Shown here piece by piece: positions 32,281 through 60,773 of a DNA stretch of 64,000 nucleotides. The DNA comes from an uncultured delta proteobacterium (GTDB lineage: Bacteria; Desulfobacterota; Binatia; Binatales; Binataceae). Made by a program: the position numbers and the translations under genes. The notes below the pieces were generated by a model. That model was not told the origin of the DNA and made no database searches. It was given only the letters and a program-made list of their open reading frames with translations. The DNA lies in contig CAVVEB010000019.1 of the NCBI GenBank assembly GCA_963747115.1, positions 5,824-69,823 of the forward strand, written 5' to 3'. The stretch's first letter is position 1; each line of letters begins with the position of its first letter.

Positions 32281-32450
32281 ATTACCTCGGCGACTCTACG
32301 CGCGCGCCCTTCTCGCGGGTCCGGCGCAGCGAATTCCATATCCACTGCGCCATAAACACGGGCCAAGTCGAGTCCATGTCTCGAAATTGGACGCTATTCC
32401 GCTACTTGATTTCGGACGCCGCGGATCACAAATCCTCCGCGTGCTTGGCG
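32281..32450 (-). repeat. dispersed intergenic repeat, copy D (long form)
   Basis: The reverse complement aligns along ~170 nt with copy A at 44100-44270. It contains CGAAATCAAGTAGCGGAAT and GACATGGACTCGACTTGG. Confidence 0.85.
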
Positions 32451-32457
32451 AACAACG

Positions 32458-32483
32458 TAAACGGCGGGATCGATCCGCCGTTA
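32458..32483 (-). terminator. palindromic hairpin just downstream of the phosphoesterase gene
   Basis: TAAACGGCGGGATCGATCCGCCGTTA. The paralogous site at 44054-44081 is a perfect palindrome. Confidence 0.45.
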
Positions 32484-32501
32484 CCGCCTATTGCGCGACA
32501 C

Positions 32502-35267
32502 CTACGGGCCGGTTCCGCTGAGGCTGACATTATGCGGGCTGGTCGGATCGCTGCCGATACTCACCGCCATGTTCGCGCTCTCCGATGCTCCACCGCCTGC
32601 CGTGGGAGTGAAGGTTACGGATATCGTGCAGCTAGAGTTAGGTGTCGCCGTCGTCCCGCAAGTCCCGCCCGTCACTGCGAAGTCATTCGCATTCGCGCCG
32701 CTAAAGGCTTCGCCTATCGAGAGTGAAAATCCCGACAGGTTGGTGACGGTGACGGTCTTCGCCTTCGATGGCGCCTTCGAGGTGAGCGTTCCATAGCCCA
32801 GCGTGAGCGGCGTCAGTGTCGCCGGTACCGTCGGTCCCGTGCTTAGCGCGATCGGGTAGGGGCTAAGCGGGTCGGGGCTGTCAGAGACCGAGAGCATCGC
32901 CGATTCCGTCCCCAAAGCACCCGGGGCGAAGGTCACGGCGATCGTGCAAGCTGAATTCGCGGCCAGAGTCGAGCTGCAGGTACCTCCAACAACGGAGAAG
33001 TCGGCGGCATTTATCCCGCTGAGGTTTTCGCTCAATGTCACCGGCTGAGTCTGATGATTCGTGACGCTGAATGACCCCATCCCCTTGACGCCGAACTTTA
33101 CGCTCCCGAAGACCAGATTGCTGGTCGAAGCGGTCAAATCTGCTACGCCGCTACCACTCAGCGCCACGTTCTGCGGGCTGGCGGCGGCGTTATCGCTGAC
33201 CATCAGCGATGCGTTATGCGCGCCGATCGCGTTGGGCGTGAATGCGACTCCCAGCGTGCATGACGTCTTGGGCGCGACCGTCACCGGGATCACACCGCAG
33301 GTCCCTGCGCCGGTTACGGCATATTCAGCTGGGTCGGTCATTGTCGCGCCTGAGACGATCAGCGAATTGGTATTACCGGTGTTGTTGATTGTAAGAGACT
33401 TAACGCCAGTCTGGCCGACGGCAACGTTACCCACGATAAGCGAACTGGTCATTGTCATCGAGGTGGTCGGCGTCGCCGTTGGCGTGGCGGTTGCGGTCAG
33501 CGTTGCAGTTGTCGTTGGCGTGGGAGTCGCGGTAACCGTCGGCGTCGCGGTAGCTGTTGCGGTTGGAGTGTCGGTGGCAGTAGCCGTCGCGGTGGCCGTC
33601 GCTGTTTGAGTAGCCGTCGCCGTCGCGGTTGCGGTGGGAGTATCGGTGGCCGTCACGGTTGGTGTCGCGGTAGCTGTTGCGGTTGGAGTGCCGGTGGCAG
33701 TAGCCGTTGAGGTTGCGGTGGGAGTATCGGTGGCCGTCACGGTTGGTGTCGCGGTAGCTGTGGCGGTTGGAGTGTCGGTGGCAGTAGCCGTCGCGGTTGC
33801 GGTGGGAGTATCGGTGGCCGTCACGGTTGGCGTCGCGGTAGCTGTGGCGGTTGGAGTGTCGGTGGCAGTAGCCGTTGCGGTGGCCGTTGCTGTTTGAGTA
33901 GCCGTCGCGGTGGCCGTAGCTGTTTGAGTAGCTGTCGGCGTCGCAGTCACCGTCAGCGTGGCCGTCGCGGTCGGCGTCGCAGTTACGGTTGGGGTTGCCC
34001 CTGCCGCGGGGCAGATCCTGGTCGGAAGCGGCATCGGGGCACTTGGCGCCTGGGTGAAATTGAAGGCGTCGAGCAGGTCGTTGACGGTCGCGTCTCGCGC
34101 GGGCCCTCCAATCGGCGGCAGCCCGAAGTTATGTTCCACGGTGGCCGCAAACGACGAGAATTCGGTGACGCTATGTGAGACATATCCGGACTTTGCGTAT
34201 GGCGAGATCACGATCAGCGGCACCCGGAAGCCTAAGCCGGTAAGGTCGCCGCCCGCGAGGTTACTCTGCGGCGGATCGACGTGATCGTAAAAGCCGCCGA
34301 AATCATCGAAGGTGATGAAGATCGCGCTGCTGCCCCATTCGGGCCCATTCATGACCGCATTGACCAACTGGACCAGAGTGTTCTCATCCTTACAGAACGA
34401 AGCCGGTGGATGAGCCGACTTGGTATTCGGTTCCACCAGCCATGATACGTTTGCAAGGGTGCCCGCTGCCGCATCAGTCAGGAACTGGGCATCCGATTTG
34501 AAATTGGTCGTCCATTGCGGGCTGTACCGGATGTGGCTGATTGCGTCGAACTCGTTCCATTGAGACCCGGACGTGCCCAGCGGCGGAGTATAGTACATCC
34601 AGCTCAGGCCGGCCGCATTGAGCACATCGGGCAGCACCGCAAAGTCCATACAGGGCGAGATGTTCAGCGTCCGGGCGTATTGGGCGGACCCGGGCGGATT
34701 GATCTGTGCCACTTGTTGTACGTAAGTACCGGCCGGACTGTCGCAACCCCAGATGTAGTTGTTTGACTGGACACTTGGGTTACCGGCGATATTGTTCGCC
34801 CATGCCGCAATGGTGAATAGATGATTCGGAAAGCTCGGCCCGCGCACCGAAGTAAAGAACTGGTCGTAAAACGTGTAGTCGGTCGCATAGGTATGAAGGT
34901 TGGGAATGCTGGTCTGGCTGTATTGGCAGATGCAAGGGTATCCCGTGCTCGCCGTACAACCGACGATTTTGTCGAAGCCGTCCATCTTGCCGTTGTCCCA
35001 TCCGAGTAAAGCTGCTGCCCAGGCATGGTCCGGGTCCTCGGACAGCGGGTCGGGACAGGCGGGGATCGGATAACTTGCGCCGGTCGAGAGCGTGGCCGTC
35101 GCGGCGACGTCGGCGCCGGGGACCGGGCCAAAATTGTCGGTGGTATGATTCTCCATCACAATAAAGACAAAGTGCTGAATCGGTTGCGGGGAGACTTGAG
35201 CGGATAGAGGCGCCGACAAAACCAGGGCGAGCAGCGCCGAGAAGACCGCGACGGCTATTTTGGACAT
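32502..35267 (-). CDS. phospholipase C / phosphoesterase family (PF04185-like) protein with long Thr-Ala linker and choice-of-anchor-D-like C-terminal repeats
   Basis: ATG at 35267, signal peptide [23 protein letters not shown]. Catalytic-domain start [16 protein letters not shown]. About 180 aa of [12 protein letters not shown] linker, then four repeats ending ...C.I.V.F.P...G. Confidence 0.85.
33462..33995 (-). repeat. coding Thr-Ala linker repeat with higher-order ~84-nt units
   Basis: (GBN-NGT)n on the plus strand. The protein motif [16 protein letters not shown] recurs 4-5 times. Confidence 0.9.
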
Positions 35268-36483
35268 TGCTTTTCCCGCCGTCACGTTTCCGTGATGGCA
35301 ACCGCGATACCGCGTATCAAAACCGTCCCCCCCCGATTGGCAGTCGGCCGGGACGGTGTTGAGCAAGCTTGCGGCCCGCATTGCCAACAAGCGGTTTAGC
35401 GCGTATTCACCTGTTAATGCAAGCGCTATTTCGCATACGAAGGCTTGGATTTCATACAAATGGGTCTACGGCCGCGCAACCTTCTGGCGGGCGCCGCGGA
35501 TGGCAGCGCTACAAGGCGGCGATCAAATCAGGCTCGAGCCGTGAGCTGATATCTTCGCTGGATGCTCGCCTAACGGTCGATATCGCGCTCTGCGTTCACA
35601 GGCTCCAGCGTGAGCTTCCCATCATTATACGGGTCGAGTACCCGATATGGGTCGAGTACCCAAGCTCGCCGGCATAGCGGAAATCCTCCTTTGCCTTCGA
35701 GCCCGGCGCTTTTTCGGAGAATTCGCTTTCAGCCGTCTTTCTGGATGAACGCCAATCAGACCCGAACTGCGCTCCGAAATTTAGAAGCGCTAATGACCGT
35801 CAACCGGAATCCGGTTGACACCTTACGGCGGTTGACAAGTCGCTATTTTCGAGGTGGTGCCGGACGGTACCAATATTAGCTCAACTTATCATGTCGGTGG
35901 CAGTTTCCTTGCGAAACTCGGTCAGGAAATCGGGTGGGCAACAAACCGGCTAACAGACTTCAGTTCTTGGTGCGGGTATTCGATGGTTGCCTTTATCTCC
36001 TCGGCTTCGACGGCGATCAGGTTATGCCGTCTTTGTTCTTCGTTTTGCGTCCGGCCATAAGATCAAACGATCGACTAATGACCGCCACCGGAAGCCTAGA
36101 GAATCATTCCAGTGCACCGTATTCTGCACGCTTTTGCGGCCGCTCAACGATGGACCGTTTCGAGCCATCCAAGACCCTTCGTGTAGCAATTCGCGCCAAT
36201 ACGTAATGGTTGTAAATCTGCCTGTCTGTTTAAGTATCGGTCCAAATCGAGTTCAACTTCCGGCTTCCCGCGGTAATTTTTGTAAAGTACCCAACGATTC
36301 TGTCGGTGAATGGTCCGCCCGCCTCTTCTGACCAGGCTTATGGGATGATTTTGAGCGTAGCGATTTTGTTGGCAGGAAGATTGCAATCGCTAATATCAGG
36401 ACATCGCGCTCCAGGAATAACGGCAACAACTTCGCCGACATCAATTTCTCGTCGACGAAACACCCTTGACAAGGAGGTCGAGC

Positions 36484-37789: not shown

Positions 37790-37881
37790 GTCGCAGCTGC
37801 TGGTCACTAGCGCTTCTGGATTTCGGAGCGAGTTCCTGCAGGGAATTTATTTCCCTGCTCAATCCCAATCACGCCGGGCAA

Positions 37882-37939
37882 ACCCACAGATTGTGATCCG
37901 ATGTACATGCAGAACTTTGGCGACATCGGTCACCGTCAT
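37882..37939 (-). pseudogene. 5' fragment of a second excisionase gene (paralog of 29066..29236)
   Basis: The minus strand reads ATGACGGTGACCGATGTCGCCAAA..., identical for the first 24 nt to 29066-29089 and about 75% similar for the next ~34 nt. It translates as MTVTDVAKVLHVHRITI and then loses homology. Confidence 0.65.
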
Positions 37940-38144
37940 TTGTGTCGCGGGCTTTGCGCGTTACCGATTGCTACTCGGTTGCCAAGCGTAGCGCGAGCGC
38001 GGCGTTTCTTAGCGGGTTTGCGACGGCACTGGGTTCGCCAAAGCAACATCAGCTTTGCTTATCATGCTCGCCCGAAGTTCCTGATTACCTTAACGCGATG
38101 CTTCCTCTTTGAACGCCGGCTCGACCAGCTTGAGCCGCGGGCGC

Positions 38145-41100
38145 TTACGCATGCGCAACACCGAGCGCGACCACCACGTCTTCGAGATCGTCGAAGAGCG
38201 AATACGCGACCGGCGTCACAAGCAGCGTGATGAGGAGGCACAGCGTCTGTCCGCCGATGACCACGATCGCGATGCCGCGCTGTTCGCCGGAACCGGCGCC
38301 GCGTCCGAACGCAACCGGAATCATACCGGCGACGAGCGCCGCGGTAGTCATCAGGATCGGGCGCAGCCGGTCTCGCGGTTGCGCCTCCATGATCGCCTTG
38401 CGACGCTCCATTCCCTGATTGCGCAGGTTGATCGTCTGATCGACCTGGAGGATCGAATTCTTTTTGACTATTCCGAACAGCAGCAGAATGCCGAGGATCG
38501 AGAACAGCGACATCTGTTGGTGGAAGACGATCAGCGACAGCAGCGCGAACGGTACCGCCAGCGGCAACGACAGCATGATCGTCACCGGATGGGTGAAGCT
38601 TTCGAACTGCGCCGCCAGCACCATGTACATGAAAACGATCGAGAGCCCGAATGCGATTACGAAGCCGCCGATCATTTCGCTGTACATCTTGCTCTGGCCG
38701 CCGAATGCGGTGGTATAGCCGGGCGGGATATCAACCTTCTTCGAAGCATCGGTAACGGTCTTGATGATCCTGTTCATCTGGGTGCCAGACGCGAGGTTGA
38801 ACACCAATGCGATCTGGCGCTGACGCGATTGCCGATCGATCTCGACCGGTCCAGTGCCGCTCACCAATGCCGCGACGTTATCGAGCCGAACCTGTCCAAC
38901 GGTAGTGGACGGCAGGGTGAGGCTCGATACTACCGCGGGGTCGTTGCGATCTTTGTCGTTAAGTTCAAGCCGCACATCGTAGGTGTCCTGACCCTCGCGG
39001 AAGCGCGTTACGACGTCGCCCTGCACCATGGTACGCATCGTCGCCGCGATATCCGACACCGACACGCCGAGGTCAGCCGCCTTCTGCCGATCGATTTGCA
39101 CCTGAAGTTCGGGCAATCCCGCTTCGTATGTCGAATCGATGTCCAGTACTCCGGGTATGTGTTTCACCTGCTCGCGCATCCCCGCGATGATCGTTGCAGC
39201 TTGTCGAGGTCGGGCCCACGCACATCGTACTCGACGTCGACTTCGCGGAAACCGCCCTGCTCCCATGGTTTGATGTCGTCGACACTAACCCGCATCGCTG
39301 GGAAACCGCGAGACCAGTCTGCGCGCATCCTCCATCACCCGCTGTTGCGAACGCCGGCGCTCGGTGACCGGCGAAATTTCGCGACGATTGCGCGAGCGTC
39401 ACATTATCTGCACCGGTGGTATCGCCGACGGTGTAAAGATGTGTCGGACTTCGGGAATGGTGCGGACCCGCGATTCCATCGCGCGCACCATCGCATCGGT
39501 ATGTTCTAGCGAGTAGCCCGGCGGAGTGCGGAGGTTGACGCGAAATCGCTGGAGTCCTCCGCGGGCATGAAGTTGGCGCCGACGATCTTCGCCGAGCACC
39601 GGGATCATAGCACCAGCGCCCGCGACGCTCGAGAGATCACCCATCGATGGTCGAGCGACCACTCGAGCGCGCGATCGTAGAGGCGATTCGATGGGCCGAA
39701 GAACCACGAATCGCGCGAGGTCCGCTGCCGCCTTCGTGCGCTTCAGGAAGCGCGAGCACAGCATCGGGGTCAGCGTGAACGCGACCAGCAGCGACACCAT
39801 GATCGAGAACGCCATCGTCAGTCCGAAGGTGTTGAGGAAGCGGCCGGTCGACGCTATGGATGAACGCGACCGGAACGAAGATGACTACCAACGAAAGCGT
39901 GGTCGCGCTGACCGCGAGGCCGACTTCGGCGGTCGCGGCTTTCGCTGCCGCCATCGGCGCACATGCGCTTCTCCTCGATGAACCTGAATATATTTTCCAG
40001 CACTACGATCGCATCGTCGATTACGATACCGACCGCGAGCGTGAGCGCGAGCAGCGACAGCGTGTTGAGCGTGAAGCCCATCCACAAAAGCAGCGTGTAG
40101 GTCGAGATGATCGACACCGGAATCGCGACCGCCGCAATCAGGCGTCGAACGCAACGAACCGAGGAAGAAGAACACCACAATCGCGGCGCAGATGCCGCCC
40201 AGCACCAGATGCTCCTGCACCGTATGCACCGATTCGCGGATGTACTGCGACGAATCGCGCGAGGCGATCACTTTCACGCCCGGCGGCAGCGCGGGTTCGA
40301 TCGCGTGCAGCCGCGCGAAGATGTTATCGACCACCTCGATAGTGTTGGTGCCCGATTGCTTGCGAATCACCAGCGAGACCGCGTTCAGCCCGTCCCATCG
40401 CGAGAGCGAGCGCGGCTCCTTGATCCGTCTCTCGACGGTGGCCACATCGCTAACCAGAACCGGTTTGTTGTTCTGCTCGCTGACGATGATTTTGGCGAAG
40501 TCGGGCACCTCGATGATGCGTCCGAGCGTGCGCAGGACATTCTCCGAGAGCCCCTGCTTCATGTGGCCGCCGGGATATTCGACGTTCTGGCCTTGCAGCG
40601 CGGTCGAAACCTGCTGCACCGAAAGCCCGGTCGCACGCAGCCGATTCGGATCGACGAGGACATGCACTTCGCGCTCGCGGCCGCCGACGATCTCGATCGA
40701 TCCGACTCCATCGACCGATTCGAGCGGCTCTTTGATCATGCGCCGCCCGATCTCGGTCAGCTCCTTCATCGATTGGAAGCCGGTCACAGTGAAGGTCAGG
40801 ATCGGCAGCGAGTCCATGTCCCATCGCGCGACCAGCGGCGGCTTGGTTCCCTCGGGCAACTGGTCGAGCACGGTGGAAATTTTGTCGCGGACATCCTGCA
40901 CGCCGGCGTTGATGTCGCGGTCGAGCTTGAACTCGACCATGATGCGCGACACGCCTTCCAGCGTGACCGAGCGCAACTCATCGATGCCGGTGACGGTGTT
41001 GATGACTTCCTCGAGCGGCTTGGTGACGCGCGCCTCGGTCTCCTCGGGCGCGGCGCCCGGCAGGTAGGTCTGGACGATCACCATCGGCATGTCGACCTTG

Positions 41101-41212
41101 GGATAGAGGTCGACGCCGAGGCGCATTAGGAAAACCATCCGAGCACCACCAGCACGCCGACGAACATGGTGGCGAAGACGGGCCGCCGCACGCATAGGTC
41201 CGCGAGGATCAC
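38145..41212 (-). pseudogene. RND efflux transporter permease, heavily frameshifted
   Basis: AcrB-like sequence is spread over ORFs 41126..41395, 39885..41195, 39854..40180, 39637..39954, 39399..39815, 39073..39402 and 38145..39266 in changing frames. The GTG start at 41212 follows AAGGAG. Confidence 0.85.
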
Positions 41213-43163: not shown

Positions 43164-44056
43164 ATGAAGCCGTCTCGGGATAGATTCCGGTCCAAATACG
43201 CATAACCTGGGCTCTTGGCGCGGCTTCGTTGGCAATATTTGCGATTGTCGTACCAGCGACTGAGTCCGCCGCAACATCCGGCGTCTGGATTCCGCTGAAT
43301 AATCAGCCGTCCGCATCCTCCCCCATATTCTATCCAGGTAGCGTATTTCTGCTCACCGACGGCACCGTTTTAGCCCAGGATGGGGACACGGTTGACCTGA
43401 CGACCTCGGGTTTCGAGCTTGACGTGGTCCGCGGAAAAATTCGGCCACGGCTATGTCAAAGCACTCTCGGTCACGAATCATCAGACCGTCGCGATCTCAC
43501 TCAGTGAAAGCATCAGCGGAACCAACGCTGCCGACTTTGCCGTAACGGGAGGGGCCTGCACCTCAACGCTCGGAGCCAAGGGCGCTTGCACGATCGTCGT
43601 GACCTTCACGCCGGGCGCTCTCGGAACAGAATCGGCGTCGCTGTCGGTCTCTGACAGTCCCGATTCCTCGAGCCCGCACGCAGCTACGCTCAGCACCGGG
43701 ACAACGATCCCGGCAACGGTCGCGCCGAGCGCGCTCGCATATGGGACGCTGACGGCCAGCGCCCCATCGAAGACTAAGAACGTGACAGTCACGAACCTGT
43801 CAGGATTTCCGCTACCCTTAAACGAGAGCTTCAGCGGAAGCAATGCGAATGACTTCGCAGTGACCGGCGGAACTTGCGGTGCTACCGCATCGCCCAACTC
43901 GAGCTGCACATATCCGTAACCTTCACGCCCACGGCAGGCGGTGGCGTATCGGAGAGTGCGAGCCTCGCGGTGAGTATCGGGACCGATCCGACCAGCCCGC
44001 ATAACATCAGCCTCACGGGGACCGGCCCCTCTAGTGGCGCGCGAAATAGGCAGTAA
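43164..44056 (+). pseudogene. chimeric/deleted remnant: Kelch-protein N-terminus fused to choice-of-anchor-D repeats paralogous to 32502..33100
   Basis: The ATG at 43164 (after GGAGGGGG) gives MKPSRDRFRSKYA-stop. The signal peptide plus WIPLNNQP...LLTDGTVLAQDG continue in another frame. From about 43420 two repeats are colinear with the C-terminus of the 32502..35267 protein, with a frameshift near 43915. Confidence 0.7.
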
Positions 44057-44099: not shown

Positions 44100-44270
44100 G
44101 CCAAGCACGCAGTGGATTTGTGATTCGCTGCGTCCGAAATCAGGTAGCCGAATCAACAGTTAATCCGCGACTTGGACTCGACTTGGACCGTGTTTGCGAC
44201 GCAGTGGATATGGAATTCGCTGCTCCGGGCCCGCGACATGGGCGCGCGCGTCGAGTCGCCGATGTAATGG
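44100..44270 (+). repeat. dispersed intergenic repeat, copy A (long form)
   Basis: GCAGTGGATTTGTGATTCGCTGCG...GAAATCAGGTAGCCGAATCAA...GACTTGGACTCGACTTGGACC...GCAGTGGATATGGAATTCGCTGC. Confidence 0.85.
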
Positions 44271-46701: not shown

Positions 46702-46813
46702 GTCCGGCGCGTCAACTTGAATGAACAGACAAAGTCGAGCCAAAGTCGTCACCTAATATTCGTTGATTTGGCTAGTTGATTCGGGGCGCTGTGGAGTGAT
46801 CATTCGCCGCGTC
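46702..46813 (-). repeat. dispersed intergenic repeat, copy E
   Basis: Very similar to copy F at 60664-60773: about 14 substitutions and one 3-nt indel over ~112 nt by hand alignment. Confidence 0.85.
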
Positions 46814-46880
46814 TAGACGATCAGGAGCTCTAAAATCGAGCGATAGTGTGTAAGAAGCAAGTGCCTCTTCGCATATCTGC

Positions 46881-46935
46881 CGGAGGGGGTGGGATTTGAA
46901 CCCAGGAGGGACTTTCATCCCTGCCGGTTTTCAAG
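46881..46935 (-). pseudogene. tRNA-Ser(UGA) 3'-half fragment (anticodon loop to 3' end)
   Basis: The minus strand reads CTTGAAAACCGG-CAGGGATGAAAGTCCCTC-CTGGGTTCAAATCCCAC-CCCCTCCG. This corresponds to anticodon loop + 3' anticodon stem, long variable arm, T-arm and 3' acceptor strand. There is no D-arm, and the sequence 5' of the loop (TCGAA) cannot pair with ACCGG. Confidence 0.6.
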
Positions 46936-47274
46936 TTCGAAGGGATACCCTCCGCCCTTATCCACACTGAGTGATTACGCGCCCTAATCAGTTCGTCACA
47001 GAGCATATCACTCGCCCGCATTCATGCCTTGGTGGTCAAGGTGGTGGTCAGCCTCGCAAGCGCGTAGAGGCGCCGATGTAATTCTCGCTGTCTTGAGATT
47101 GCAACAGACCTAACGAGCAGTCGCTGTATCCAGACGACCCAGCGGCTGAGAAAAGTGACTCCCTAAGAACCTGCTTTCCATTTTGGAAGGTTGAGTGAAG
47201 TCTTTCTGCTCGATGAGCAGACGGCACGCCTTGTGCTGAGAACGTTTGTCGATAGAGGCGAAGGAGAGGGCATT

Positions 47275-48861
47275 ATGAGAAAGATAGTGTTTGGCTCAAT
47301 TATCGCGGCCGGCCTATCTTTGATGACCGCGCCACCAGCAAGTGCGTTAGCACCCGGTTTGTGCGGGCACAGTTACGCAATGTTGATGACGGGAGGGAAT
47401 CCGCAACTCGTTTCGGCGACGGGAGGCACAGGCCTCCCCGGAGCGGCCACGCCCGCGTTCGGCATTGGTACGATCACGTTCGCTGCCGCCCAAACCGGAG
47501 CGACGAGTTGCGCCGTGACAGGCGGCGAACTTATCTATAACGCTGGCGATGTCCAGACCTACCCCATCGGCCTCTATTTCGGTCCCGCCGTTTGTTACAC
47601 CTCATCGTCCTTGCTCGGAACCGGAGTCCCGTGCTTTGACGGCCAGAACAACTTCGCGGCGGGCTTGCTGTCAAGCGGCGGCCCTGGCGGATCGTACATT
47701 CTGTCGTTTGCCGCGAACTACAGTTGGCTTGACGGGGAGGATGTTGAAGGTACCGTTCCATTCAGTTTCTGGATTCAGAACACACTGGGCAGCCTGATGG
47801 CCGTCGGAAGCAGTATCCCCGGTACCGTTGATCTCTCGCTGCCGGGAAATGGTGCTCCGGTCCTGAGCATCACATTGCAGAAGCAGAGGATCGTCCCTGT
47901 CGCAACCACCTATGGTGCCGCCCCCCATATCGGGGAGGCGGCCGTAAGCTGCTTGGCGCAAGTGGCTAATTCAACCGATTCGGTCGCAGCCAGTCAGGCC
48001 GCAGCCGCCAACGGCTTTGGTCCGACCGTCACGGGCGGTTTTGAATCGACTGCAGGAGCGATCGCGATCTTTACGGCACCTGCCAGCGGTCCTGCCTGCC
48101 AAGCGGGCGGAAACTTGAGCTTAAACAGCAACGACAACTACGTCAGTTCCGGCACACCGCCCAGCAATAACAACTGCGCATTCTCATTCTTGCCAGGAGA
48201 CTGCATCGAGGGGTACTCCGCTTCGCAAACCGCTCCTACCTTTTCGACTACCGCCTCGCAATTCGCTGATGGCACTAGCAACGGTTCCGCCTTCGTAGGA
48301 ACCAGCGGCTCGAACTGCAGCAAGGCGCTCACTGCGGGTGCGGGATACTCCACCAGCGCCGTGCAGTGGGGCGGCGCGGATTTTGATTCGTACGTAATGC
48401 CGACCGGTCTTGTTACTACTGCGACCGGGTACGTACCTGCAGGCGCTTCGTCGGTCTGCACCGAGTACGAACAACTACCAACTGCTCCCAAAATCACCAA
48501 CCAGGTCGTGACCACTCTAATCTCGGTAATTACGCCTAGATCGAACGGCCCCAAGATGGGGTATGTTAATCTAACCAACCCCACCGAAGCTGACTGCGAC
48601 ATCGAGATCTCGATGCCCTCGGTGAGCGGTGGCGGCTGCTTTCTCGACTTGGCCTATCCTGGTGGGGACTCCGTAGCGAACCCGGTGGAGACGGATGTGC
48701 CGGGCCCGGCACCTGCCACGCTGGTCGCAACCACAGACTGCCTATGCAACTTCCCGTCTGGGACGGTCAGCGCGGTCTACTCGACGTTGACGCTCTCGTC
48801 TGTGCAATGCCCGCTGAGCGGCACAACCTCGTACACGATCACGTGCAAGAACTACAGATAA
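47275..48861 (+). CDS. secreted Cys/Gly/Ser/Thr-rich hypothetical protein
   Basis: The ATG at 47275 follows AAGGAGAGG. Signal peptide MRKIVFGSIIAAGLSLMTAPPASA. About 16 Cys residues. No domain recognised. Confidence 0.65.
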   Translation: MRKIVFGSIIAAGLSLMTAPPASALAPGLCGHSYAMLMTGGNPQLVSATGGTGLPGAATPAFGIGTITFAAAQTGATSCAVTGGELIYNAGDVQTYPIGLYFGPAVCYTSSSLLGTGVPCFDGQNNFAAGLLSSGGPGGSYILSFAANYSWLDGEDVEGTVPFSFWIQNTLGSLMAVGSSIPGTVDLSLPGNGAPVLSITLQKQRIVPVATTYGAAPHIGEAAVSCLAQVANSTDSVAASQAAAANGFGPTVTGGFESTAGAIAIFTAPASGPACQAGGNLSLNSNDNYVSSGTPPSNNNCAFSFLPGDCIEGYSASQTAPTFSTTASQFADGTSNGSAFVGTSGSNCSKALTAGAGYSTSAVQWGGADFDSYVMPTGLVTTATGYVPAGASSVCTEYEQLPTAPKITNQVVTTLISVITPRSNGPKMGYVNLTNPTEADCDIEISMPSVSGGGCFLDLAYPGGDSVANPVETDVPGPAPATLVATTDCLCNFPSGTVSAVYSTLTLSSVQCPLSGTTSYTITCKNYR

Positions 48862-49060
48862 GGGCGAATGGAGATATGACGTCGCATTCATTTCATGGAG
48901 AAACTCTTGGCTTAAATCTTTATCCGTCTTCGCCTGAAGCCGGAGAGCCTCCTCAGCATCGGCTTCGTGAAGCAGTCCAACGCTCGCCACAGTCCGCCCG
49001 GGCAGAACCTCCCGCTGCGCCCACAAGTTCGACTAAATTTTGAAGGAGGCGATAGCCGAC

Positions 49061-49150
49061 GCAGTGGACTTGTGATTCGCTGCGCTCGGAATCAGTTAGG
49101 CGAATCAAGGGCAAGTTCGAGACTTGGACTCTACCTGGGCCTTGTCCATC
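49061..49150 (+). repeat. dispersed intergenic repeat, copy B
   Basis: GCAGTGGACTTGTGATTCGCTGCGCTCGGAATCAGTTAGGCGAATCAAGG...GACTTGGACTCTACCTGGGCC. Confidence 0.85.
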
Positions 49151-49254: not shown

Positions 49255-50423
49255 TTATACAATTTCGCGGAACGCCATCGCCGGAACTACGCGCATCGCG
49301 CGAATCACCGGGCCGAGCGCGCTCGCGATACTCACCAGGACCGCCGAGGCGACCGCCGCTGCCGCCGTCTCCGGACGCACCTCTATATAGCCCAGCATCC
49401 CGGTTATTCGCCGAGCCTGATGCCGTGCGCAAAAGTCCAGAGCGCGAGCCCCGCACCGGCGATCGATCCGCCAAGGCCGATCAGCGCCGCCTCGGTGAAC
49501 AGCAGGATCCGCGATATGCGTCCGCGTGAATCCGAGCACGCGCATCACTGCCACTTCGCTGATTCGGTCGCGCACCATCATCGCCATCGAATTGGCGGCG
49601 ATCAGCAAAACCGTCAGCAGTACTACCATGCACAAGCTGTAGATGATCGCACGGATGTTGCCGATTGCGCTGACCACGTTGGCGACCGAATCGGACTCGG
49701 TCGTCGTCTCGGTTTCGGCGTCGGAGTTGTGGAAATTCTCGTCGATCTCGTCGGCCACCAATCCCATGTTTTCTTCACGATCGACACGCACCATGATGAA
49801 CGACGCCCGGTCCTGGATATTCGCTCCGTAAAGATTCTTCACCGCGTCGTCCAGCATCCTGCGATCGAACAAAAACGCACGTGACAAATATTCGGTCGGA
49901 AACTCGACAATCGGAATGAACGTCAGCGCGAGCTTCGCATCGCTCGGGATTGCGCAGCGTAAGCGGCTGACCGAGTTTCCATCCGTGCTCGCGCATGAGC
50001 GCGTATCCGACCATCGCGCTGCGGCGATCCGTCTGCATCAACTTCACCTTGTCCGGCGGTATCTGGTAGTCGCTGCTCCCGGTGACGCTCGCGATGTCGC
50101 CATTTATTCCGTAAGTGATGATCGGGTCCTTGGGATCGCGATAGATCGCGCCCCAAAGGATTTCCGGCGCGCATCCCATCACGTGCGCGCAGCTTCTTGA
50201 TCGGCTCGCAGTATCGCGCCGGCAGCCGGCCGTTATTGCGCTCGGTCACCACCAGGCGCAGCCCCTTCGATGCGTTGTCGGCGATCCGATCCATCGACCA
50301 CGGCACCGCGACCAGCACCGTGTAGATGAACACCGCGATGGCAAAGGTCAGCCCAGTCAGGATCGTCCGCCGAAGCTGGCGGCGCATGTTGCGCAAAGCG
50401 ATCGTCAGCAACCTGGCCGTCAT
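49255..50423 (-). pseudogene. FtsX/MacB-type ABC transporter permease, multiply frameshifted
   Basis: The N-terminus (LRNMRRQLRRTILTGLTFAIAVF) is in ORF 49923..50423, the periplasmic domain in 49775..50182 and the TM2-4 region in 49255..49887. Within the last, the segment RGRISRILLFTEAALIGLGGSIAGAGLAL is readable only in another frame. Confidence 0.8.
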
Positions 50424-50426
50424 TCG

Positions 50427-51589
50427 TCACGCCTCCCTCAGCGCGCTGACGATGCCGACTCGCGAAGCGCGCAAGGCCGGCATCAGCCCGCCCGCAACTC
50501 CAATAATCGCCGCCACCACGACGCCTGCCGCTATTGCGCCCGCGGTCGGTCGGTACGAGAAGAACATCGCGCCGACACTCATCGTGCGGCTGGTCAATCC
50601 TGTCGCCCAGGCGACCGCGGTCGCAAGCACGACGCCTGCGACACCGCCCGCGAAGCCGAGGATCACGCTCTCGATCACGAAGCTGCTCAGGATGTTGGCG
50701 CGGGAGAAGCCCAATACGCGCAGCACGCCGATTTCGCGCCCGCGCCGGGTCACGGCTGTATACATCGTGTTCATGCCGCCGAAGGTCGCGCCAATCGCCA
50801 GCGCGAGCGCCACGATCACTCCCAGCGTCCGCAGCTGCCAGCCAACACCGCCTGCGCGGCGTAGTATTCGGTTTCTGTTTCCGACCTGCAGGTCAGGCGG
50901 CCGTCGGCCTTGATCGCCTGCGCAAATTCAGCCGCGCTCCCGGGTTTCAACACTAGGTGTAGCGCGGCGGCGCCGCCGGCGTCCCAGTGGCAGTCATTGA
51001 TCAGGTCTTCGATATCGGTCCAGGCTTCCGATTCGCGTGCGCTGTCATTGTCGGAGAAGACCCCGACGATTTTCCAATCGCGATGCCCGTAGTGAGAAAC
51101 TCGCCCCGGCGCTGAAGATATGGGAATCGCGCCAACAGCCGTCGCCCGACCGCCCATTCCCCGTTGCCACGCACCGGCCAGTGCCCCTCCACGCAGATGA
51201 AGGTTCGAATGCACTTCGTAGGCAATCGGATCGACGCCGCGAAGAAGCGCGAATTCTTTGGCGCCCCTGGTCCTGCTGATATTTACTCCCGCGATACTCT
51301 CCGGCGAAAGGAGCGCTTGATGCTGCTCGTTGGTCGCGATTTCCGGACGTACTCGGAGGATTTCGATTGCCTGGTGGGGAACGAAGCTCTCGTTCTCGCT
51401 GGTCACGCCGCGCGCCATCACGATCACGTTACGATCTTCGCCGGCATTCAGCAGCGATTGCCTGAGCCCGGCGGTAAATCCAAAGACGATGACGAAGATC
51501 ATCGAGACGAGCGCGACTCCCAGTATCGTCATCAGCGACGTCGCGCGCCGCTCCAGGAGGCTTCGAATGTTGTAGCGAATCGGCACCAT
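50427..51589 (-). pseudogene. second FtsX/MacB-type permease, frameshifted
   Basis: ORFs 50816..51589 and 50427..50819 abut in different frames. Part of the periplasmic domain (VEGHWPVRGNGEWAVGRRLLARFP) is readable only in ORF 51001..51225. Confidence 0.8.
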
Positions 51590-51900
51590 CGCCCGCAGAC
51601 CTTCGTTTCAATTGGTTGTGCCTACCAAAACTCCGAACGCGCCCAAAAGTCTAGAGTTTTGGGTTGGACCGCCGCAGTGTTATCTGCATCAAAAGGCGTG
51701 CGTCATCGCGGTGGCGTCGCACCGCTCTGCGGCCTCTGCGTCTGCTGCTAGTCTTTGCTGAGAGGTCGGAACCATGGCTTCGTCTTGGGCACATCGCGCC
51801 ACTTCTTCGTTCGCGTTTCCAACTTGTCTGCATTTCAATTCCTCAGCGAAATGCGCGCCGACTTAGATAGGGGCTCTATCCGCGTTTTGGAGCCTTCGGG

Positions 51901-52025
51901 CGCAGTGGATTTGTGATTCGCTGCGCTCGAAATCAAGTAGGCGAATCAAGGACACGTTCGAGACTTGGACTCGACTTGGACCTTGTTTAGGACGCGGTGG
52001 ATACAGAATTCAGTGCGCTGGCCCC
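51901..52025 (+). repeat. dispersed intergenic repeat, copy C
   Basis: CGCAGTGGATTTGTGATTCGCTGCGCTCGAAATCAAGTAGGCGAATCAAGG...GACTTGGACTCGACTTGGACCTTGTTTAGG...GCGGTGGATACAGAATTCAGTGCGC. Confidence 0.85.
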
Positions 52026-52580: not shown

Positions 52581-52718
52581 AAGTGATGCTCGACTACATC
52601 GCGCGTCCCATGGGCGACATGAACGTCTGCGGTGCTCACGCGGCCCAGCTCATCGACCGGGCTGGCGCGAGGAATCTCGAAATCTCAATGTCTCGTCATT
52701 TCGAACAAAGAAGAAATC

Positions 52719-54446: not shown

Positions 54447-54701
54447 ATGCGAATCTACTTCGACGCGCCTTGCAAATATTGCCGTGACGGGAGACGCGCC
54501 GCCACGAACGTCAGGCCCGTCGACTATATCGGTCGTCCGATGGGCGACCTGAACGTCTGCGGTGCGCACGCGGCGCAGCTCGTCGACCGGGCTCGCGCGA
54601 GGAATCTCGAAGTCTCGATCCGAGCAGCAACGGCGCTCGACCTTGCTCCTGCTTCGCGGTCGGGCCAGGATGCTGCGCGCGGATCGAGAAAAGGCTTTTA
54701 G
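54447..54701 (+). CDS. small CxxC...CxxH hypothetical protein
   Basis: MRIYFDAPCKYCRDG...VDYIGRPMGDLNVCGAHAAQLVDRARARNLEVS. A 5'-truncated ~98-nt copy of its central part lies at 52589-52686. The end of the real coding region is uncertain. Confidence 0.3.
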   Translation: MRIYFDAPCKYCRDGRRAATNVRPVDYIGRPMGDLNVCGAHAAQLVDRARARNLEVSIRAATALDLAPASRSGQDAARGSRKGF

Positions 54702-55840: not shown

Positions 55841-55950
55841 TAGGCCACTTGATTTCTCGGAAACAGCCAAAGTCGAGTCAAAGTCCCAAAATAGCCATTG
55901 ATTCGATTAGCTGATTCGGCGCGCTGCGGATTGATAATCCGCTGCGCGCT
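55841..55950 (-). repeat. dispersed intergenic repeat, copy G
   Basis: ...CCAAAGTCGAGTCAAAGTC...TTGATTCGATTAGCTGATTCGGCGCGCTGCGGATTGATAATCCGCTGCGCGC. Confidence 0.8.
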
Positions 55951-56190: not shown

Positions 56191-57288
56191 TCAGTAGTCC
56201 CCCAGCGCCGCCACGCGCTCGCGATGATACCCCGGCGACCCAAAATACGACTCGTCGAAGCGCGCGCGCTTGTACCACAGATGCATGTCATGCTCCCACG
56301 TGAACCCAATCCCGCCATGCATCAGCACCGCGCGATCCGTCCCCCGGCTGTAGATGTCGCACAACCGGGCCTTCGCCATCGACGCTTCCCGCGAGCCGCC
56401 CTCCTCCGCGCGATAGGCCGCATACCACAAGAGCGCGCGCGCCGGCTCGATATCCGCGACGATTTCCGCCGCCGCATGCTTCAGCGCTTGGAACGATCCG
56501 ATCGGCTTGCCGAACTGCTCGCGCACCTTTGAATATTCCACCGCCATCTCGAGCGCGCGCTCAGTCCCGCCAAGCGAGTCGGCCGCAATCGCAACGGCTG
56601 CCACGTCGATCAGCTTCGCGAAAAGCTCGGCGCCTCCGCGCAGCATCTCGGCGGGAGCGCTTTTCAGCTCCACGCTCGACACCCGCCGCGTCAGATCCAG
56701 ATTCTTGAGCGAACGAATCGTCACCCCCGGCGACTTCGCATCGACGACGAAAAGAAAAATTTCTCCAGCATTATTTTTGGCCGCAACCGCGATAAAATCG
56801 GCGACGTTCGCGTACGGCACCAACATCTTGACGCCACTGAGCCGCCATCCCGCGCCACTCTTCGCCGCGACCGCCGCGATGTCTGCCGACTCGATACTTC
56901 CGGCCGCCTCCACCACCGCGACGGTGCCAATCGCCCTGCCCTCGGCAAGCGCGGTGAGCCACTTCAAATTGATCTCTTTCGATCCGCCAAGCTTGAGAGC
57001 GGCCACCGCGAGCACCGACGAAAACAAAAACGGCCCCGGCATCGCCGCGTAACCGCCCTCTTCAAGAATCATCGCCATATCAAGCATCCCAAGCCCCGCC
57101 CCGCCAAACTCCTCGGGCACGATAAGCCCGCTCCACCCAAGCTTCGCGATCTGCCCATAAAGCTCGCGCGGATACCCGTCCTCGAGCGCCATAACTTTGC
57201 GCACGACAGTGGCAGGGCACTTCCCGCCAAGAAATGCCCGCGCACTCTCCTTGAGCTGCTGCTGTTCGTCACTAAGTCCAAAATCCAT
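56191..57288 (-). CDS. acyl-CoA dehydrogenase family protein
   Basis: 365-aa ORF with an ACAD N/M/C domain pattern (MDFGLSDEQQQLKESARAF...; ...HGGIGFTWEHDMHLWYKRA). Confidence 0.9.
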   Translation of the reverse strand: MDFGLSDEQQQLKESARAFLGGKCPATVVRKVMALEDGYPRELYGQIAKLGWSGLIVPEEFGGAGLGMLDMAMILEEGGYAAMPGPFLFSSVLAVAALKLGGSKEINLKWLTALAEGRAIGTVAVVEAAGSIESADIAAVAAKSGAGWRLSGVKMLVPYANVADFIAVAAKNNAGEIFLFVVDAKSPGVTIRSLKNLDLTRRVSSVELKSAPAEMLRGGAELFAKLIDVAAVAIAADSLGGTERALEMAVEYSKVREQFGKPIGSFQALKHAAAEIVADIEPARALLWYAAYRAEEGGSREASMAKARLCDIYSRGTDRAVLMHGGIGFTWEHDMHLWYKRARFDESYFGSPGYHRERVAALGDY

Positions 57289-57329
57289 GACTGTTACTTT
57301 CCTACTTAGTCCCTTTCTCCTTGTCCGTT

Positions 57330-57363: not shown

Positions 57364-57668
57364 GAGAGGTTTCACGCCCGCTGCCCCGCCTACTCTCGAC
57401 CTACAGCACCATTTGAGCGTCGCTGCGATGGCCCGCGTTGAACCTCACCCGGGCTCGCTTCGTTCCTCACTCGCCCGACCTCTCCTCGGACAAGGAGAGG
57501 TAGATAGTCGGATCTCTCCTCCCTAAAACTTCTAACAGGCGCGAAGCGCCGCATCTTGATTTTCCTATTCCTCACTCAGGTGCGGGGGCTGGCCCCTGCC
57601 CAGGGAAGCGTGAAACCCACGGCGGGTTTCAGGTCAGGATGTCGCGGCCCGAGACCACCGCTTACCCG

Positions 57669-57712
57669 CCTCGCCCGCTCCGCGGGAGAGGCCGCGCCGC
57701 GCGGGTGAGGGT
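57669..57712 (+). repeat. CCTCGCCC..GGGAGAGGCCG..CGGGTGAGGG REP-like element, copy 1
   Basis: CCTCGCCCGCTCCGCGGGAGAGGCCGCGCCGCGCGGGTGAGGGT, 24 nt downstream of the ACAD stop. Confidence 0.7.
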
Positions 57713-57735
57713 GTCCACTTCCGACTTCCCCTCTC

Positions 57736-58923: not shown

Positions 58924-59186
58924 AAATGAAGCCTCAGCATAGTCAAAACCACCCCGCCGCGAAAACCCGCGCAACATGGATTAGAATCAAACGGATTTCG
59001 TTCCGCTTCCCACATGGGAAGGGGTTAGGGGTTAGGTCTTCCGGGGCTCGAGCGAATCTCTCGTCACCCTGAGCGAAGCGAACGGGCCCCGGATCTTTTG
59101 CGACGCGCCCACACTACGGCGTCCTACGGAGCAGGCACCGTTCCAAGTCGATCCAATCCTCTCTTCGCCGATGGCGTTCCTGATAG

Positions 59187-59241
59187 CCTCGCCCTGACAG
59201 GGAGAGGCCGACGCATCGTCTTCAATGCGTCGGGTGAGGGT
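59187..59241 (+). repeat. CCTCGCCC..GGGAGAGGCCG..CGGGTGAGGG REP-like element, copy 2
   Basis: CCTCGCCCTGACAGGGAGAGGCCGACGCATCGTCTTCAATGCGTCGGGTGAGGGT, with internal hairpin CCGACGCAT/ATGCGTCGG. Confidence 0.7.
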
Positions 59242-59526
59242 CCAAATTTTAGGATGCCTTCTCCGCTGTCCGTGGCCCGCTAGATAGACTCGACATCATC
59301 AGAGGACTACAAAAGTCGAAGTGCGGATCGTCTATCGATTTAGTGCCCAATTTCCTTGGCACGAAATTAAATCCGCATCGTCGCGCAAATTCGCGGGAAG
59401 TTCTTCAACTTACACTCACCTAATGGCGGAGTCCAAGCGCGAGCTGGCGGAAAAGATGGACGTCATTACTTAGTGGGGCAAAGAAGCTCGACGAACTAGC
59501 TCCAATTTTTATCGTTCACCAGCGAT

Positions 59527-60402
59527 TCAGGTGTCAGTCCAGCGCGGCAAGTGCGTCGAGAAGGGTGCGCCCGACAGTGCCGCCCGGAGCTCGCTGACGA
59601 ATTCTCGCGCTGCTTGTCGCCCGTTGGGGAATTGGTCGTTTCGATCCCAGCGCCATGCTGCGACCATCGCAAGCATAAGGACCCGGCATTCGCGGAGCAA
59701 CTGTTGATCGGTGCTCCGGTAGAGCACGCTCACCTCGTTGGGCACGTAGGCGAGATCGAACTCGACGGGCCCGCGGCAACAGGTCTCGAGGTCAATGAAC
59801 AGCAGGCCCTTCTTCGTCCTGAGCACGTTGCCCGGGTGTGGCTCGCCGTGCAGGAGTTGTTCGGGGCGCCCGCGAGCGCTGATCGCCTGCCGCAGACTTC
59901 GTAACGTGTTGCTGAGAAGCTCACGATCCGCGTCAACGAGCTCTGGAGTCTGGTCGCGGCTTCCGATAAGCCGTTGGGCGTCGGTGATTCGATCCGTAAT
60001 GTGCGGTGTCGGGAAGTCGATCTGCCGCATGCAGTCATGCAGCCGTTCGAGCGCGTGCGCGTAGTCGGCTGGCGCGAACTCTCGGGACGGCACAGGTTCG
60101 TAGTAGGTCCACAGCGTGACCACAAAGCTGTCACGCACGTAGACGCCCGGCGCGACCCGAGGCTCAAGCGCTGCTACGGGGCTCCCGGTTTCCGCGAGCC
60201 GTAAAGCAAGCTCGACTTCGAACTCCGCCCAGCGCTTGATGCGCTTCTCCGCGACCCGAGCAAGAACGTCGCACGGCAGCAGGCGCACAGCGAGCTTGTT
60301 CGACTCCTGGAGCACGATCGCATCATCGACTGTCAGGCCAAGCGCTGCAGCAGCGCCCATCGCCGCGGCGACCGCACGGTTACGGTTACTCGTCATCGAC
60401 AA
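59527..60402 (-). CDS. aminoglycoside/choline-kinase-type phosphotransferase (APH family)
   Basis: 291-aa ORF with LLHGEPHPGNVL......FIDLETCCRGPVEFDLA (Brenner and DFG-like motifs). Confidence 0.8.
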   Translation of the reverse strand: MSMTSNRNRAVAAAMGAAAALGLTVDDAIVLQESNKLAVRLLPCDVLARVAEKRIKRWAEFEVELALRLAETGSPVAALEPRVAPGVYVRDSFVVTLWTYYEPVPSREFAPADYAHALERLHDCMRQIDFPTPHITDRITDAQRLIGSRDQTPELVDADRELLSNTLRSLRQAISARGRPEQLLHGEPHPGNVLRTKKGLLFIDLETCCRGPVEFDLAYVPNEVSVLYRSTDQQLLRECRVLMLAMVAAWRWDRNDQFPNGRQAAREFVSELRAALSGAPFSTHLPRWTDT

Positions 60403-60663
60403 GGCTTTGAGGGTGAGAGAGAATCGCCAGAAATAGAAATACGTCCGGATTTTTGTTCGAGCCGAGCGCCGCCGTTCCTCGGCACGGGATTTTTCGATGC
60501 GATGTCATTCAATTAACTACTTTTGATTGCGGATCGCGCTCAAGCGGCGCGCGACGCACCTCACGCTGACAGTAAGCCCATCAATTTATGTACGTCAAAG
60601 CGACCGCCTGCGGCCCATGCCGAAGGGCCTCTGATATAGATGGCCACCGCGCGCGCCCGCCTA

Positions 60664-60773
60664 AGTCCGGCGCGTCGACTAGAATGAACAGACAAAGTCG
60701 AGCCAAAGTCACCTAATAGTCGTTGATTTGGCTAGCTGATTTGGTGCGCTGCGGAGTGATCATCCAGTGCGCC
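60664..60773 (-). repeat. dispersed intergenic repeat, copy F
   Basis: See copy E. It overlaps the last codons of ORF 60760..61098. Confidence 0.85.

Follow-up and report, generated by a model that had tools for sequence, protein, structure and literature searches.

A mosaic, hairpin-bearing DNA repeat in genomic islands of uncultured Binataceae

Introduction

What kind of sequence recurs seven times in one half of a bacterial contig fragment, next to unrelated genes and in both orientations, and by what means did it come to stand there? We asked this of a repeat in a 64,000-nt stretch of DNA (positions 5,824 to 69,823 of contig CAVVEB010000019.1, assembly GCA_963747115.1; the whole stretch is called the window below) from a member of the Binataceae (Binatota), which are abundant, uncultured soil bacteria. 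A first-pass annotation, made from the letters alone, had described the repeat and suggested that it acts at the DNA level, perhaps as a non-autonomous mobile element. We know of no published description of mobile DNA from Binataceae, and a full-text literature search with the core sequence and for repeats of Binatota returned nothing relevant; as far as we can tell, the repeat family is real and undescribed.

Here we show that the repeat is built around a block of 85-90 bp which behaves as a discrete unit, found in unrelated contexts and in both orientations, and that within the DNA sampled, which is a small sample, it is confined to horizontally acquired island DNA of Binataceae. We tentatively compare it with the repetitive extragenic palindromes (REPs) and related elements of other bacteria, and we weigh this comparison against recombination, packaging, RNA and operator readings of the same evidence.

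Results

The repeat is a compact unit with sharp edges and optional modules

A degenerate pattern made from the two most conserved blocks, AATCANNTANNNNAATNNNN{8,16}GACNTKGRCTCNACNTKG, matches the window exactly seven times and has no match in 100 dinucleotide shuffles used as a control; a profile hidden Markov model (HMM) of the core finds the same seven copies and no others in the 64 kb. The seven places and orientations given by the first-pass annotation are thereby confirmed. On the minus strand the pattern matches lie at 32363-32411, 46730-46781, 55868-55916 and 60693-60741, and on the plus strand at 44138-44186, 49090-49138 and 51931-51979.

The whole repeat measures 85-115 bp. Within it, a discrete block of 85-90 nt forms the conserved unit, which starts with a 29-nt imperfect palindrome, termed P1 (12-bp arms around an unconstrained 5-nt centre), and continues with CGAAATCA, GTAG, CGAATCAA, a spacer and GACTTGG-ACTC-GACTTGG. 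When 34 copies are aligned, the mean column identity is 81% and the consensus reads GACGCAGTGGAT-NNNNN-ATYCGCNGCGTC CGAAATCAC GTAG CCGAATCAAGGGCAATTTCGA GACTTGGACTCGACTTGGAC TGTTCAC. Outside the palindrome there are thus about 55 nt of conserved sequence, with CGAA(A)TCA occurring twice at 13-14 bp and GACTTGG twice at 11 bp; to judge from their sequence, these phased repeats have the look of protein-binding sites. Both edges of the unit are sharp: among 615 copy pairs, shared homology begins at the first base of P1 (median 0, interquartile range -2 to +1) and ends just past the second GACTTGG (median +1.5, interquartile range -2 to +7). The block order first reported for the seven stretches is borne out by their alignment, and the variable spacers are real as well; the extent is what had to be revised, since the unit proved more compact than described and is accompanied by modules that some copies have and others lack.

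These add-on modules flank the unit, are optional, vary between copies and occur in mosaic combinations (U1/U2/U3; D1/D2/P1'). Three types, of 25-35 nt, lie upstream, whereas the several downstream types each start with CGACGCGSC, which resembles the 5' arm of P1, and one of them, found in at least seven loci, is an extension of non-coding sequence about 400-480 nt long. A T-rich motif (TTTTG.., GATTT..) is located 17-30 nt upstream of the unit, with no fixed tetranucleotide. The two proposed sub-families hold: copies A-D (type 1) have the P1 centre TTGTG and GACTTGG repeats, and copies E-G (type 2) the P1 centre GATCA or TATCA and GACTTTG. So does the second hairpin of the long forms, in that copies A, C and D carry a near-complete further copy of the hairpin about 85 nt downstream. 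We also tried to sort copies into crossover classes by P1 centre and abandoned this, as the centre varies even between orthologous loci (L007 and L012; loci outside the window are numbered with an L). The copies of the window are as follows.

Copy D, 32281-32450, minus strand: type 1, long form; HMM core 32355-32442, second P1-like hairpin 32323-32351
Copy A, 44100-44270, plus strand: type 1, long form; HMM core 44107-44194, second hairpin 44198-44226
Copy E, 46702-46843, minus strand: type 2, loop GATCA; HMM core 46721-46813
Copy B, 49058-49150, plus strand: type 1, short form; HMM core 49058-49145; 90% identical to copy C over 86 nt, flanks unrelated
Copy C, 51899-52025, plus strand: type 1, long form, representative of the anatomy; HMM core 51900-51985, second hairpin 51991-52019
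P1 of copy C: 5' arm 51899-51910, centre 51911-51915, 3' arm 51916-51927
Motifs of copy C: CGAAATCA 51928-51935, GTAG 51937-51940, CGAATCAA 51942-51949, GACTTGG 51962-51968 and 51973-51979
Copy G, 55841-55950, minus strand: type 2, loop TATCA; HMM core 55858-55946; 245 nt past the stop of the acyl-CoA dehydrogenase (ACAD) gene 56191-57288 (minus strand)
Copy F, 60664-60773, minus strand: type 2, loop GATCA; HMM core 60684-60773; 91-96% identical to copy E over about 113 nt

Not all of these represent separate events. Copy D lies 60 nt past the stop of a phosphoesterase/Ig gene (32502-35459, minus strand), and upstream of copy A there is a 166-aa fragment of an Ig-domain gene (43419-43919), a duplicate of the 3' end of the gene preceding D. 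Both copies belong to an inverted duplication of about 800 bp, the arms of which (32506-33065 and 43470-44028) take in about 560 nt at the 3' end of the Ig-domain gene and run on through the element; A and D therefore count as one event, and the independent sites number six, not seven. The possibility that the copies are merely one duplicated gene flank applies to this pair and leaves the six sites untouched. Copy E has an upstream module of about 30 nt (GCTCGATTTT...) in common with the metagenome copy L016 (window 46726-46843), and at copy G the synteny with relatives, which have no copy there, stops 18 nt past the stop of the ACAD gene.

Conservation resides in the sequence and not in a fold

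If the repeat were an RNA, its helices should leave a trace in the alignment. With Rfam release 15 there is no match at any window copy, either at the gathering score or at E<=10, nor in 15 metagenome loci, which agrees with the first-pass annotation. The proposed helices have 83.7% of their cells paired compared with 83.3% after column shuffling, and 119 of 500 shuffles attain the covariation score of these helices. Fixed stem positions are often mismatched (22 of 34 copies at one pair, 8 of 34 at another), the covariation term of the long form is unfavourable (+1.97), and the folding energy is ordinary (mean z of -0.87 for the top strand and -1.04 for the bottom strand). The best-conserved positions are those of motifs supposed to be unpaired. 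Since what is conserved is thus the primary sequence itself, and compensatory changes give no signal, a DNA-level element is favoured over an RNA, in line with the little compensatory change that had been noted at first; we conclude that the element is constrained as a sequence, that is, as DNA seen by proteins, and that an RNA is unlikely.

Several more specific candidates were examined and rejected. Neither the helices P1 and P2 nor a pseudoknot CCGAAUC:GACUUGG performed better than shuffled columns; a sigma-54 or sigma-70 promoter or an intrinsic terminator did not fit, with -24/-12 spacing that is wrong and no consensus sites at the copies; and a small open reading frame (ORF) is ruled out by a conserved TAG in one frame together with 1-nt indels. 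There is one asymmetry between the strands: in 27 of the 36 unique copies, it is on the given strand that P1 forms the more stable hairpin (49 G.T pairs as against 23 A.C), a test that is weak in that the copies are related by descent, and this bias hints at a single-stranded form.

The marks of a classical MITE are absent

Terminal inverted repeats are lacking, as the unit starts with P1 and ends with GACTTGG(AC) and these ends are not inverted copies of each other. Target-site duplications are lacking as well, in that 5- to 8-mer matches between left and right flanks do not exceed the shuffled expectation (4 against 9.4 for k=5, 0 against 2.7 for k=6). The window contains no tyrosine recombinase, REP-associated tyrosine transposase (RAYT) or complete transposase, only a fragment of an IS3-type rve gene, and genes of the IS1380, IS21, IS4 and rve types at other loci do not carry the ends of the element. 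Without terminal inverted repeats and target-site duplications, the element is not a classical DDE-type miniature inverted-repeat transposable element (MITE), and the suggestion of a non-autonomous mobile element, in the sense of a MITE, consequently did not survive. A model in which type 1 and type 2 copies form the left and right ends of transposons, bracketed A(E) B(C(G)F), was likewise rejected, as the CTTCG on the outer sides of C and G is a single match, compatible with chance, no other pair has a duplication and there is no duplication signal overall. At L020, the 3' end of an IS1380/DDE_Tnp_1_4 transposase gene (704-1159, minus strand) lies 19 nt from a truncated element tail, an insertion sequence having apparently inserted into or beside the copy.

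With gene neighbours taken from our own codon-usage gene calls, context could be counted for 21 copies in which both neighbours were called: 10 stand between convergent genes, 11 between tandem genes (5 co-oriented and 6 anti-oriented) and none between divergent genes, a pattern resembling that of REPs and bacterial interspersed mosaic elements (BIMEs). The upstream gene is co-oriented with the element in 19 of 30 cases. That all window copies are intergenic is, by our gene calls, correct for six of them; the 5' arm of copy F overlaps the last 13 nt of a Cro-like helix-turn-helix (HTH) ORF (60760-61098, minus strand).

The family extends to other islands of Binataceae

Searches beyond the window placed the family in 26 soil-metagenome contigs by pattern, with second copies in L005 and L022 found in addition by the HMM, and in two Binataceae contigs from metagenome-assembled genomes (MAGs), namely L030 with three copies (the same sequence as NCBI JBEKJC010000026.1) and L036 with two. 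The SPRUCE 314 Binataceae MAG has three diverged copies that deviate from the strict pattern; the absence of strict-pattern matches from the genome contig collection, which includes this MAG, is accordingly a failure of sensitivity and not absence of the repeat. No copy was detected in 48 kb of sequence from relatives (L027-L029) surrounding their orthologous ACAD genes, in L039, L040 or L048, or in L037, although the latter carries gene X (see below). The strict pattern had no match in viral contigs, and there was none in the plasmid database.

Within the window, all copies fall in the accessory half, as first reported, and the 27.8 kb with core genes have none. If the ACAD genes and a tRNA-Ser fragment are set aside, the element is the only similarity that the island half of the window has to every other locus.

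Some copies mark a junction between island backbone and cargo

In 7 of the 26 metagenome loci, and in L030, L036 and L041-47, the same gene, which we call X, is found just upstream of the element and co-oriented with it. The element follows immediately 3' of X in L009, L019, L020, L021, L030, L036 and L041, where the gap is 88-256 nt; it is about 540 nt in L004 and about 1400 nt in L013. The X protein has no Pfam domain and matches phrog_645, and its predicted structure consists of an HTH and a helical core, the best fold matches of which, the small terminases (TerS) of P74-26 and G20c, are not significant (E>1). In a sister clade, X comes after a methyltransferase gene and overlaps a homologue of the large terminase TerL (phrog_2, E=5e-29). 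From this modelling and context, X may be regarded as small-terminase-like. No terL remnants were found downstream of the element.

The arrangement is best seen in L030, which runs from tRNA-Ser through an integrase, a 223-aa gene, HTH_17, AAA_25 (primase/helicase-like), more genes, a methyltransferase and an HNH-like gene (weak phrog_740 match, E=2e-5) to X, and then from element 1 through a ring-hydroxylating dioxygenase operon, element 2 and a reverse-strand operon to element 3, which is in reverse orientation. Between otherwise related, tRNA-Ser-integrated islands, the DNA past the first element differs (D1 module, dioxygenase operon or other), which places the element at the junction of backbone and cargo. 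The core remains about 80-90% identical where the adjoining intergenic DNA, past the same gene, can no longer be aligned. This position at the junction is the main argument for a functional cis-site, of recombination or of packaging. On the other hand, X is missing from the vicinity of about 35 of 45 copies, the window lacks a homologue of it despite its seven copies, and the similarity of the X genes concerned (X1, 79-97% identical) makes it seem that the junction of X and element descends from one ancestral arrangement.

The islands carry tyrosine integrases. In L030, 42 nt from the 3' end of tRNA-Arg(CCT) (1219-1295) recur without mismatch and in direct orientation 892 nt downstream (2147-2188), and this repeat bounds either a mini-island or a scar; tRNA-Ser(CGA) comes next (2479-2566), then the integrase, so that the two tRNA genes form a tandem hotspot of tRNA-targeted integration. 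Both the 42-nt repeat and the placing of the integrase directly behind tRNA-Ser point to tRNA 3' ends, and not to the element described here, as the sites that the island integrases use.

The setting of the copies and other repeats in the window

The window has a G+C content of 59.4%, and one of its acyl-CoA dehydrogenases has its closest named homologues among MAG proteins of 'Candidatus Binatus' and Binataceae. Its core half (1-27.8 kb) contains genes for DAHP synthase, an RND efflux system, AhpC, DsbA and SBP56. The island half, in which phage-like gene remnants are present, begins at a tRNA gene and includes a tRNA remnant:

27764-27849, plus strand: tRNA-Leu(CAA), left edge of the island half
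46881-46954, minus strand: degenerate tRNA-Ser-like remnant (tRNA-Sec/Ser-type model, 24 bits, D arm missing)

The DNA past the tRNA gene is mixed and accessory. Among its contents are a Terminase_2 small subunit, an IS3 fragment, three HTH_17 excisionase-like remnants and a 5'-3' exonuclease, as well as the phosphoesterase/Ig gene, a split AcrB, fragments of MacB/FtsX and small redox enzymes; then come two ACAD genes and an APH gene and, at the right window end, the Cro-like HTH with ERF, YqaJ and HNH genes. The HTH_17 (AlpA/excisionase-like) genes are present as three copies or fragments (29003-29124 matching 37881-38003; ORFs 29066-29236, plus strand, and 29645-29998, minus strand), two of which form an inverted repeat, and the IS3-family rve fragment occupies 28757-28999; these are leftovers of several island backbones. 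The AcrB-type transporter is broken into two ORFs (38145-39266 and 39885-41195, minus strand) and the MacB/FtsX permease into four (49255-51589, minus strand), pseudogenes which confirm that the island half has decayed.

The tRNA-Ser-like remnant and copy E share a strand, on which the remnant stands 68 nt farther upstream. Its homology to tRNA-Ser starts at the anticodon loop; it shows 84% identity with the 3' portion of the tRNA-Ser(CGA) into which the L030 island is integrated, and by this likeness it is probably an att-type scar at an island boundary inside the window. The left-edge tRNA-Leu also bears on the element: in 255 kb searched, the best P1-like sequence outside elements is its D-stem/anticodon arm (27784-27812; AGACGCAGTGGA...TCCACCG), with a 13-mer identical to copy B, a match that is borderline (BLAST E=0.1) and no more than suggestive. 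No tRNA model matches any copy, and beyond this 13-mer the element is not tRNA-like.

The window holds further sequences of note. A 556-aa ORF (47191-48861, plus strand) encodes a secreted-looking protein rich in Gly/Ser/Thr and in Cys, which has no Pfam, NCBIfam or PHROG match and belongs to a family of about 50 members seen only in Binatus-type metagenome and MAG data. Beside ACAD genes, a motif of about 65 nt (window 59183-59248, plus strand, and 57463-57503, minus strand; L028 15-70 and 2836-2899; L029 9729-9792 and 12244-12303) resembles the Rfam whalefall-1 RNA at a score below threshold (26.6 bits, E=0.005); it could represent either a second family of repeats or a conserved motif with a regulatory role. 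Another repeat, of about 45-50 nt and 91-95% identity, is found just upstream of the start of ACAD1 (58988-59037) and three times around the ACAD genes of a relative (L028 965-1007, 1116-1165 and 4070-4113). In the core half, a 39-nt unit with a perfect palindrome (GTCTGAAACCTCGTGAGGTTTCAGAC) occurs three times (6039-6081, 8547-8585 and 8692-8730) and is a separate small repeat or terminator-like family. Tandem repeats with a period of 12 nt, encoding TPTATA-type linkers, lie in the phosphoesterase/Ig gene (33441-34040) and in a Kelch/Ig gene (11600-11869); the two arrays are about 70% similar and on opposite strands. Finally, a 100-nt direct repeat with 89% identity (52590-52689 and 54520-54619) is situated within the C-G segment.

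Discussion

We tentatively favour, while holding it to be somewhat short of probable, the interpretation of the element as a hairpin-bearing mosaic DNA repeat like REPs, BIMEs or palindrome-associated transposable elements (PATEs), copied without target duplication and tolerated at operon ends. In such a scheme, a P1 hairpin unit would have been fused to the roughly 55 nt of phased repeats, which may bind a host or island protein. New copies would arise by a mechanism that leaves no target-site duplication, conceivably hairpin-directed (of HUH or RAYT type) or of recombinase type and supplied in trans; alternatively, copies might ride along with cargo modules. They would then persist where the damage is slight, namely at gene and operon 3' ends. 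The absence of target-site duplications is compatible with hairpin-directed mobility of the HUH type.

A number of observations weigh against this interpretation. In neither the 64-kb window nor the DNA adjoining copies was a RAYT/Y1 transposase or other mobilising enzyme found. Classical REPs spread genome-wide, and here not a single copy was found in the 27.8 kb of window core genes or the 48 kb of syntenic relatives. Copies within a genome (80-90% identical) are about as similar as copies from different metagenomes (80-88%), and there is accordingly no sign of a recent burst. Among the loci compared, no pair of empty and filled orthologous sites was obtained; a 54% homologue of the 556-aa gene lacks the element, and it is as uninformative as an empty site as are the relatives of the ACAD locus. 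Lastly, a site that recurs after a terS-like gene fits a functional cis-site better than random insertion.

How close is the element to known systems? Like the REPs and BIMEs of Enterobacteria and Pseudomonas, with their RAYTs, and like the rhizobial RIMEs, it is a short intergenic, palindrome-based mosaic with extra-palindromic motifs, occurs at gene 3' ends and in convergent gaps in both orientations, and lacks target-site duplications. It differs from REPs and BIMEs in having no palindrome headed by GT[AG]G (P1 starts with GACGCAG, and the only GTAG lies between the CGAATCA motifs), in an extra-palindromic part that is longer and better conserved than the palindrome, in the lack of a RAYT gene in the window and in the confinement of its copies to islands. 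With the IS200/IS605-derived PATEs it shares strand-asymmetric hairpins with G.T pairs, the absence of terminal inverted repeats and of target-site duplications and, in copies A, C and D, similar directly oriented hairpins near both ends; yet most copies have one hairpin, there is no conserved target tetranucleotide at the left edge, and no TnpA or TnpB is nearby. Classical MITEs (Correia/NEMIS, ERIC-like) resemble it in size, clustering of copies, sub-families and intergenic location, but it has neither their terminal inverted repeats nor their target-site duplications, and no related autonomous insertion sequence was identified in the window or at the other loci. Tyrosine-recombinase att sites and integron attC sites come to mind on account of the symmetric core, the free centre, the one-sided phased repeats, the strand-biased hairpin and the repetition between gene modules of an integrase-bearing island; unlike attC, however, the element has no R''/L''-L'/R' boxes, no GTTRRRY and no adjacent intI or dedicated integrase, and its orientations are mixed within one array at a spacing of 2-5 kb. 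The cos and pac sites of phages (lambda cosN-cosB, SPP1 pacL/pacR) likewise combine a symmetric site with phased repeats, beside a small-terminase-like gene as in several of the islands, but the element is multi-copy, in both orientations, mostly far from terminase genes and downstream, not upstream, of terS. Judged by their defining features, then, it is no Rfam RNA, MITE, attC site or tRNA-derived sequence, and shows part of what characterizes REPs and BIMEs.

The most serious competitor, in our opinion doubtful but deserving attention, is that the element is a site-specific recombination or junction site (att-, res- or attC-like), in which P1 would be a core of inverted recombinase arms around a crossover region of 5-7 bp, the one-sided phased repeats would be arm-type or accessory sites, and the sites would bracket modules for capture, inversion or exchange. 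The architecture of inverted-repeat core, free centre and one-sided phased repeats fits, as do the integrases on the islands, the resemblance of P1 to the anticodon arm of the island-edge tRNA-Leu, and the first copy at 88-256 nt after X, the last backbone gene, with variable DNA beyond. Individual pairs are also suggestive of exchange: L014 and L021 have a common 3' arm and a common 840 nt downstream (94%), but differ in the 5' arm and in the DNA that precedes it; L013 and L025b agree upstream and through the 5' arm and diverge from the centre onward; L005 lacks the 5' arm; and A and D, in inverted orientation, flank a segment of 11.7 kb. Nevertheless, no dedicated recombinase adjoins the copies, the tRNA repeats of L030 suggest that the integrases have other sites, and the homology of most copy pairs includes the entire 5' arm. 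Neighbouring sites of one array mostly have different centres, the difference in centre between the orthologous L007 and L012 looks like drift rather than crossover classes, and there are no P1-only partner sites outside the long forms of the window. Far less probable in our view is a terminase recognition site (pac- or cos-like) or another life-cycle cis-site of phage-satellite-like islands, P1 being the symmetric cleavage site that is followed by phased TerS-binding repeats, and extra copies being relics of decayed islands or pseudo-sites. For this speak the putative small-terminase character of X and its overlap with TerL in the sister clade, the co-oriented element immediately 3' of X in the seven loci listed above and the satellite-like backbone of L030 (int, HTH_17, AAA_25, methyltransferase, HNH-like, terS). 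Yet the many copies without X, including all seven of the window, remain unexplained by it, both orientations and a spacing of 2-5 kb make no sense for headful or cos packaging, the TerS fold match is not significant, and the recurrence after X seems to go back to a single ancestral arrangement.

A transcribed RNA, be it a 3' untranslated hairpin or stabiliser, a small RNA or the 5' domain of a longer non-coding RNA, could account for the better folding of P1 on the given strand (27 of 36), for co-oriented upstream genes in 19 of 30 cases and for the conserved non-coding extension of about 400-480 nt after the core in at least seven loci, and there is a possible second helix, CGAAAU/AUUUCG, with changes from G-C to C-G in E and F. 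We nonetheless consider it unlikely: no Rfam match appears even at E<=10, pairing is the same as in shuffled columns (84% and 83%) and covariation is matched by 119 of 500 shuffles, the covariation term of the long form is positive, the folding energy is ordinary and alike on both strands, the supposed loops are the most conserved parts, promoter- or terminator-like sites are missing at the copies, and tandem intergenic copies occur equally in both orientations. There is little probability, too, in an operator or insulator module for a regulator or nucleoid-associated protein that marks or silences acquired DNA and is itself non-mobile. Such a module would explain why conservation is at the sequence level and in short phased motifs, two WATCA(A/C) cores of which resemble the half-consensus of integration host factor (IHF), why copies are restricted to islands, and why the core stays about 80-90% identical beside unalignable intergenic DNA. 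The copies avoid promoter regions, however (0 of 21 between divergent genes), the spacing does not suit IHF (6 nt, not 4), and sharp edges on both sides with identical units in unrelated contexts require a copying mechanism in any case.

Parts of these explanations might be combined, although we think the combination improbable. In islands of Binataceae that are phage-satellite-like and integrated at tRNA genes, the elements would then serve as boundary sites for cargo organised like cassettes, with a site of about 90 bp, composed of a symmetric core and phased arm repeats, after the terS-like gene and between cargo operons, at which a recombinase or terminase of the island or of a helper would capture, shuffle or package multi-gene modules. 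Such a system would be analogous to the integron in function, and different from it in the architecture of the site and in having operon-sized cassettes.

For the biology of Binataceae, the repeat matters as the only sequence common to otherwise unrelated island segments from many soils, which makes it a practical marker of island and cargo boundaries in metagenome assemblies, in which it is also a likely cause of contig breaks. If our preferred comparison with REPs and PATEs is right, this class of elements would reach a new phylum, in an unusual design of one hairpin plus phased repeats that is restricted to islands. If instead the element is a site of recombination or packaging, it would represent a new route by which multi-gene metabolic modules, such as the ring-hydroxylating dioxygenases, acyl-CoA dehydrogenases and efflux genes seen here, pass between genomes.

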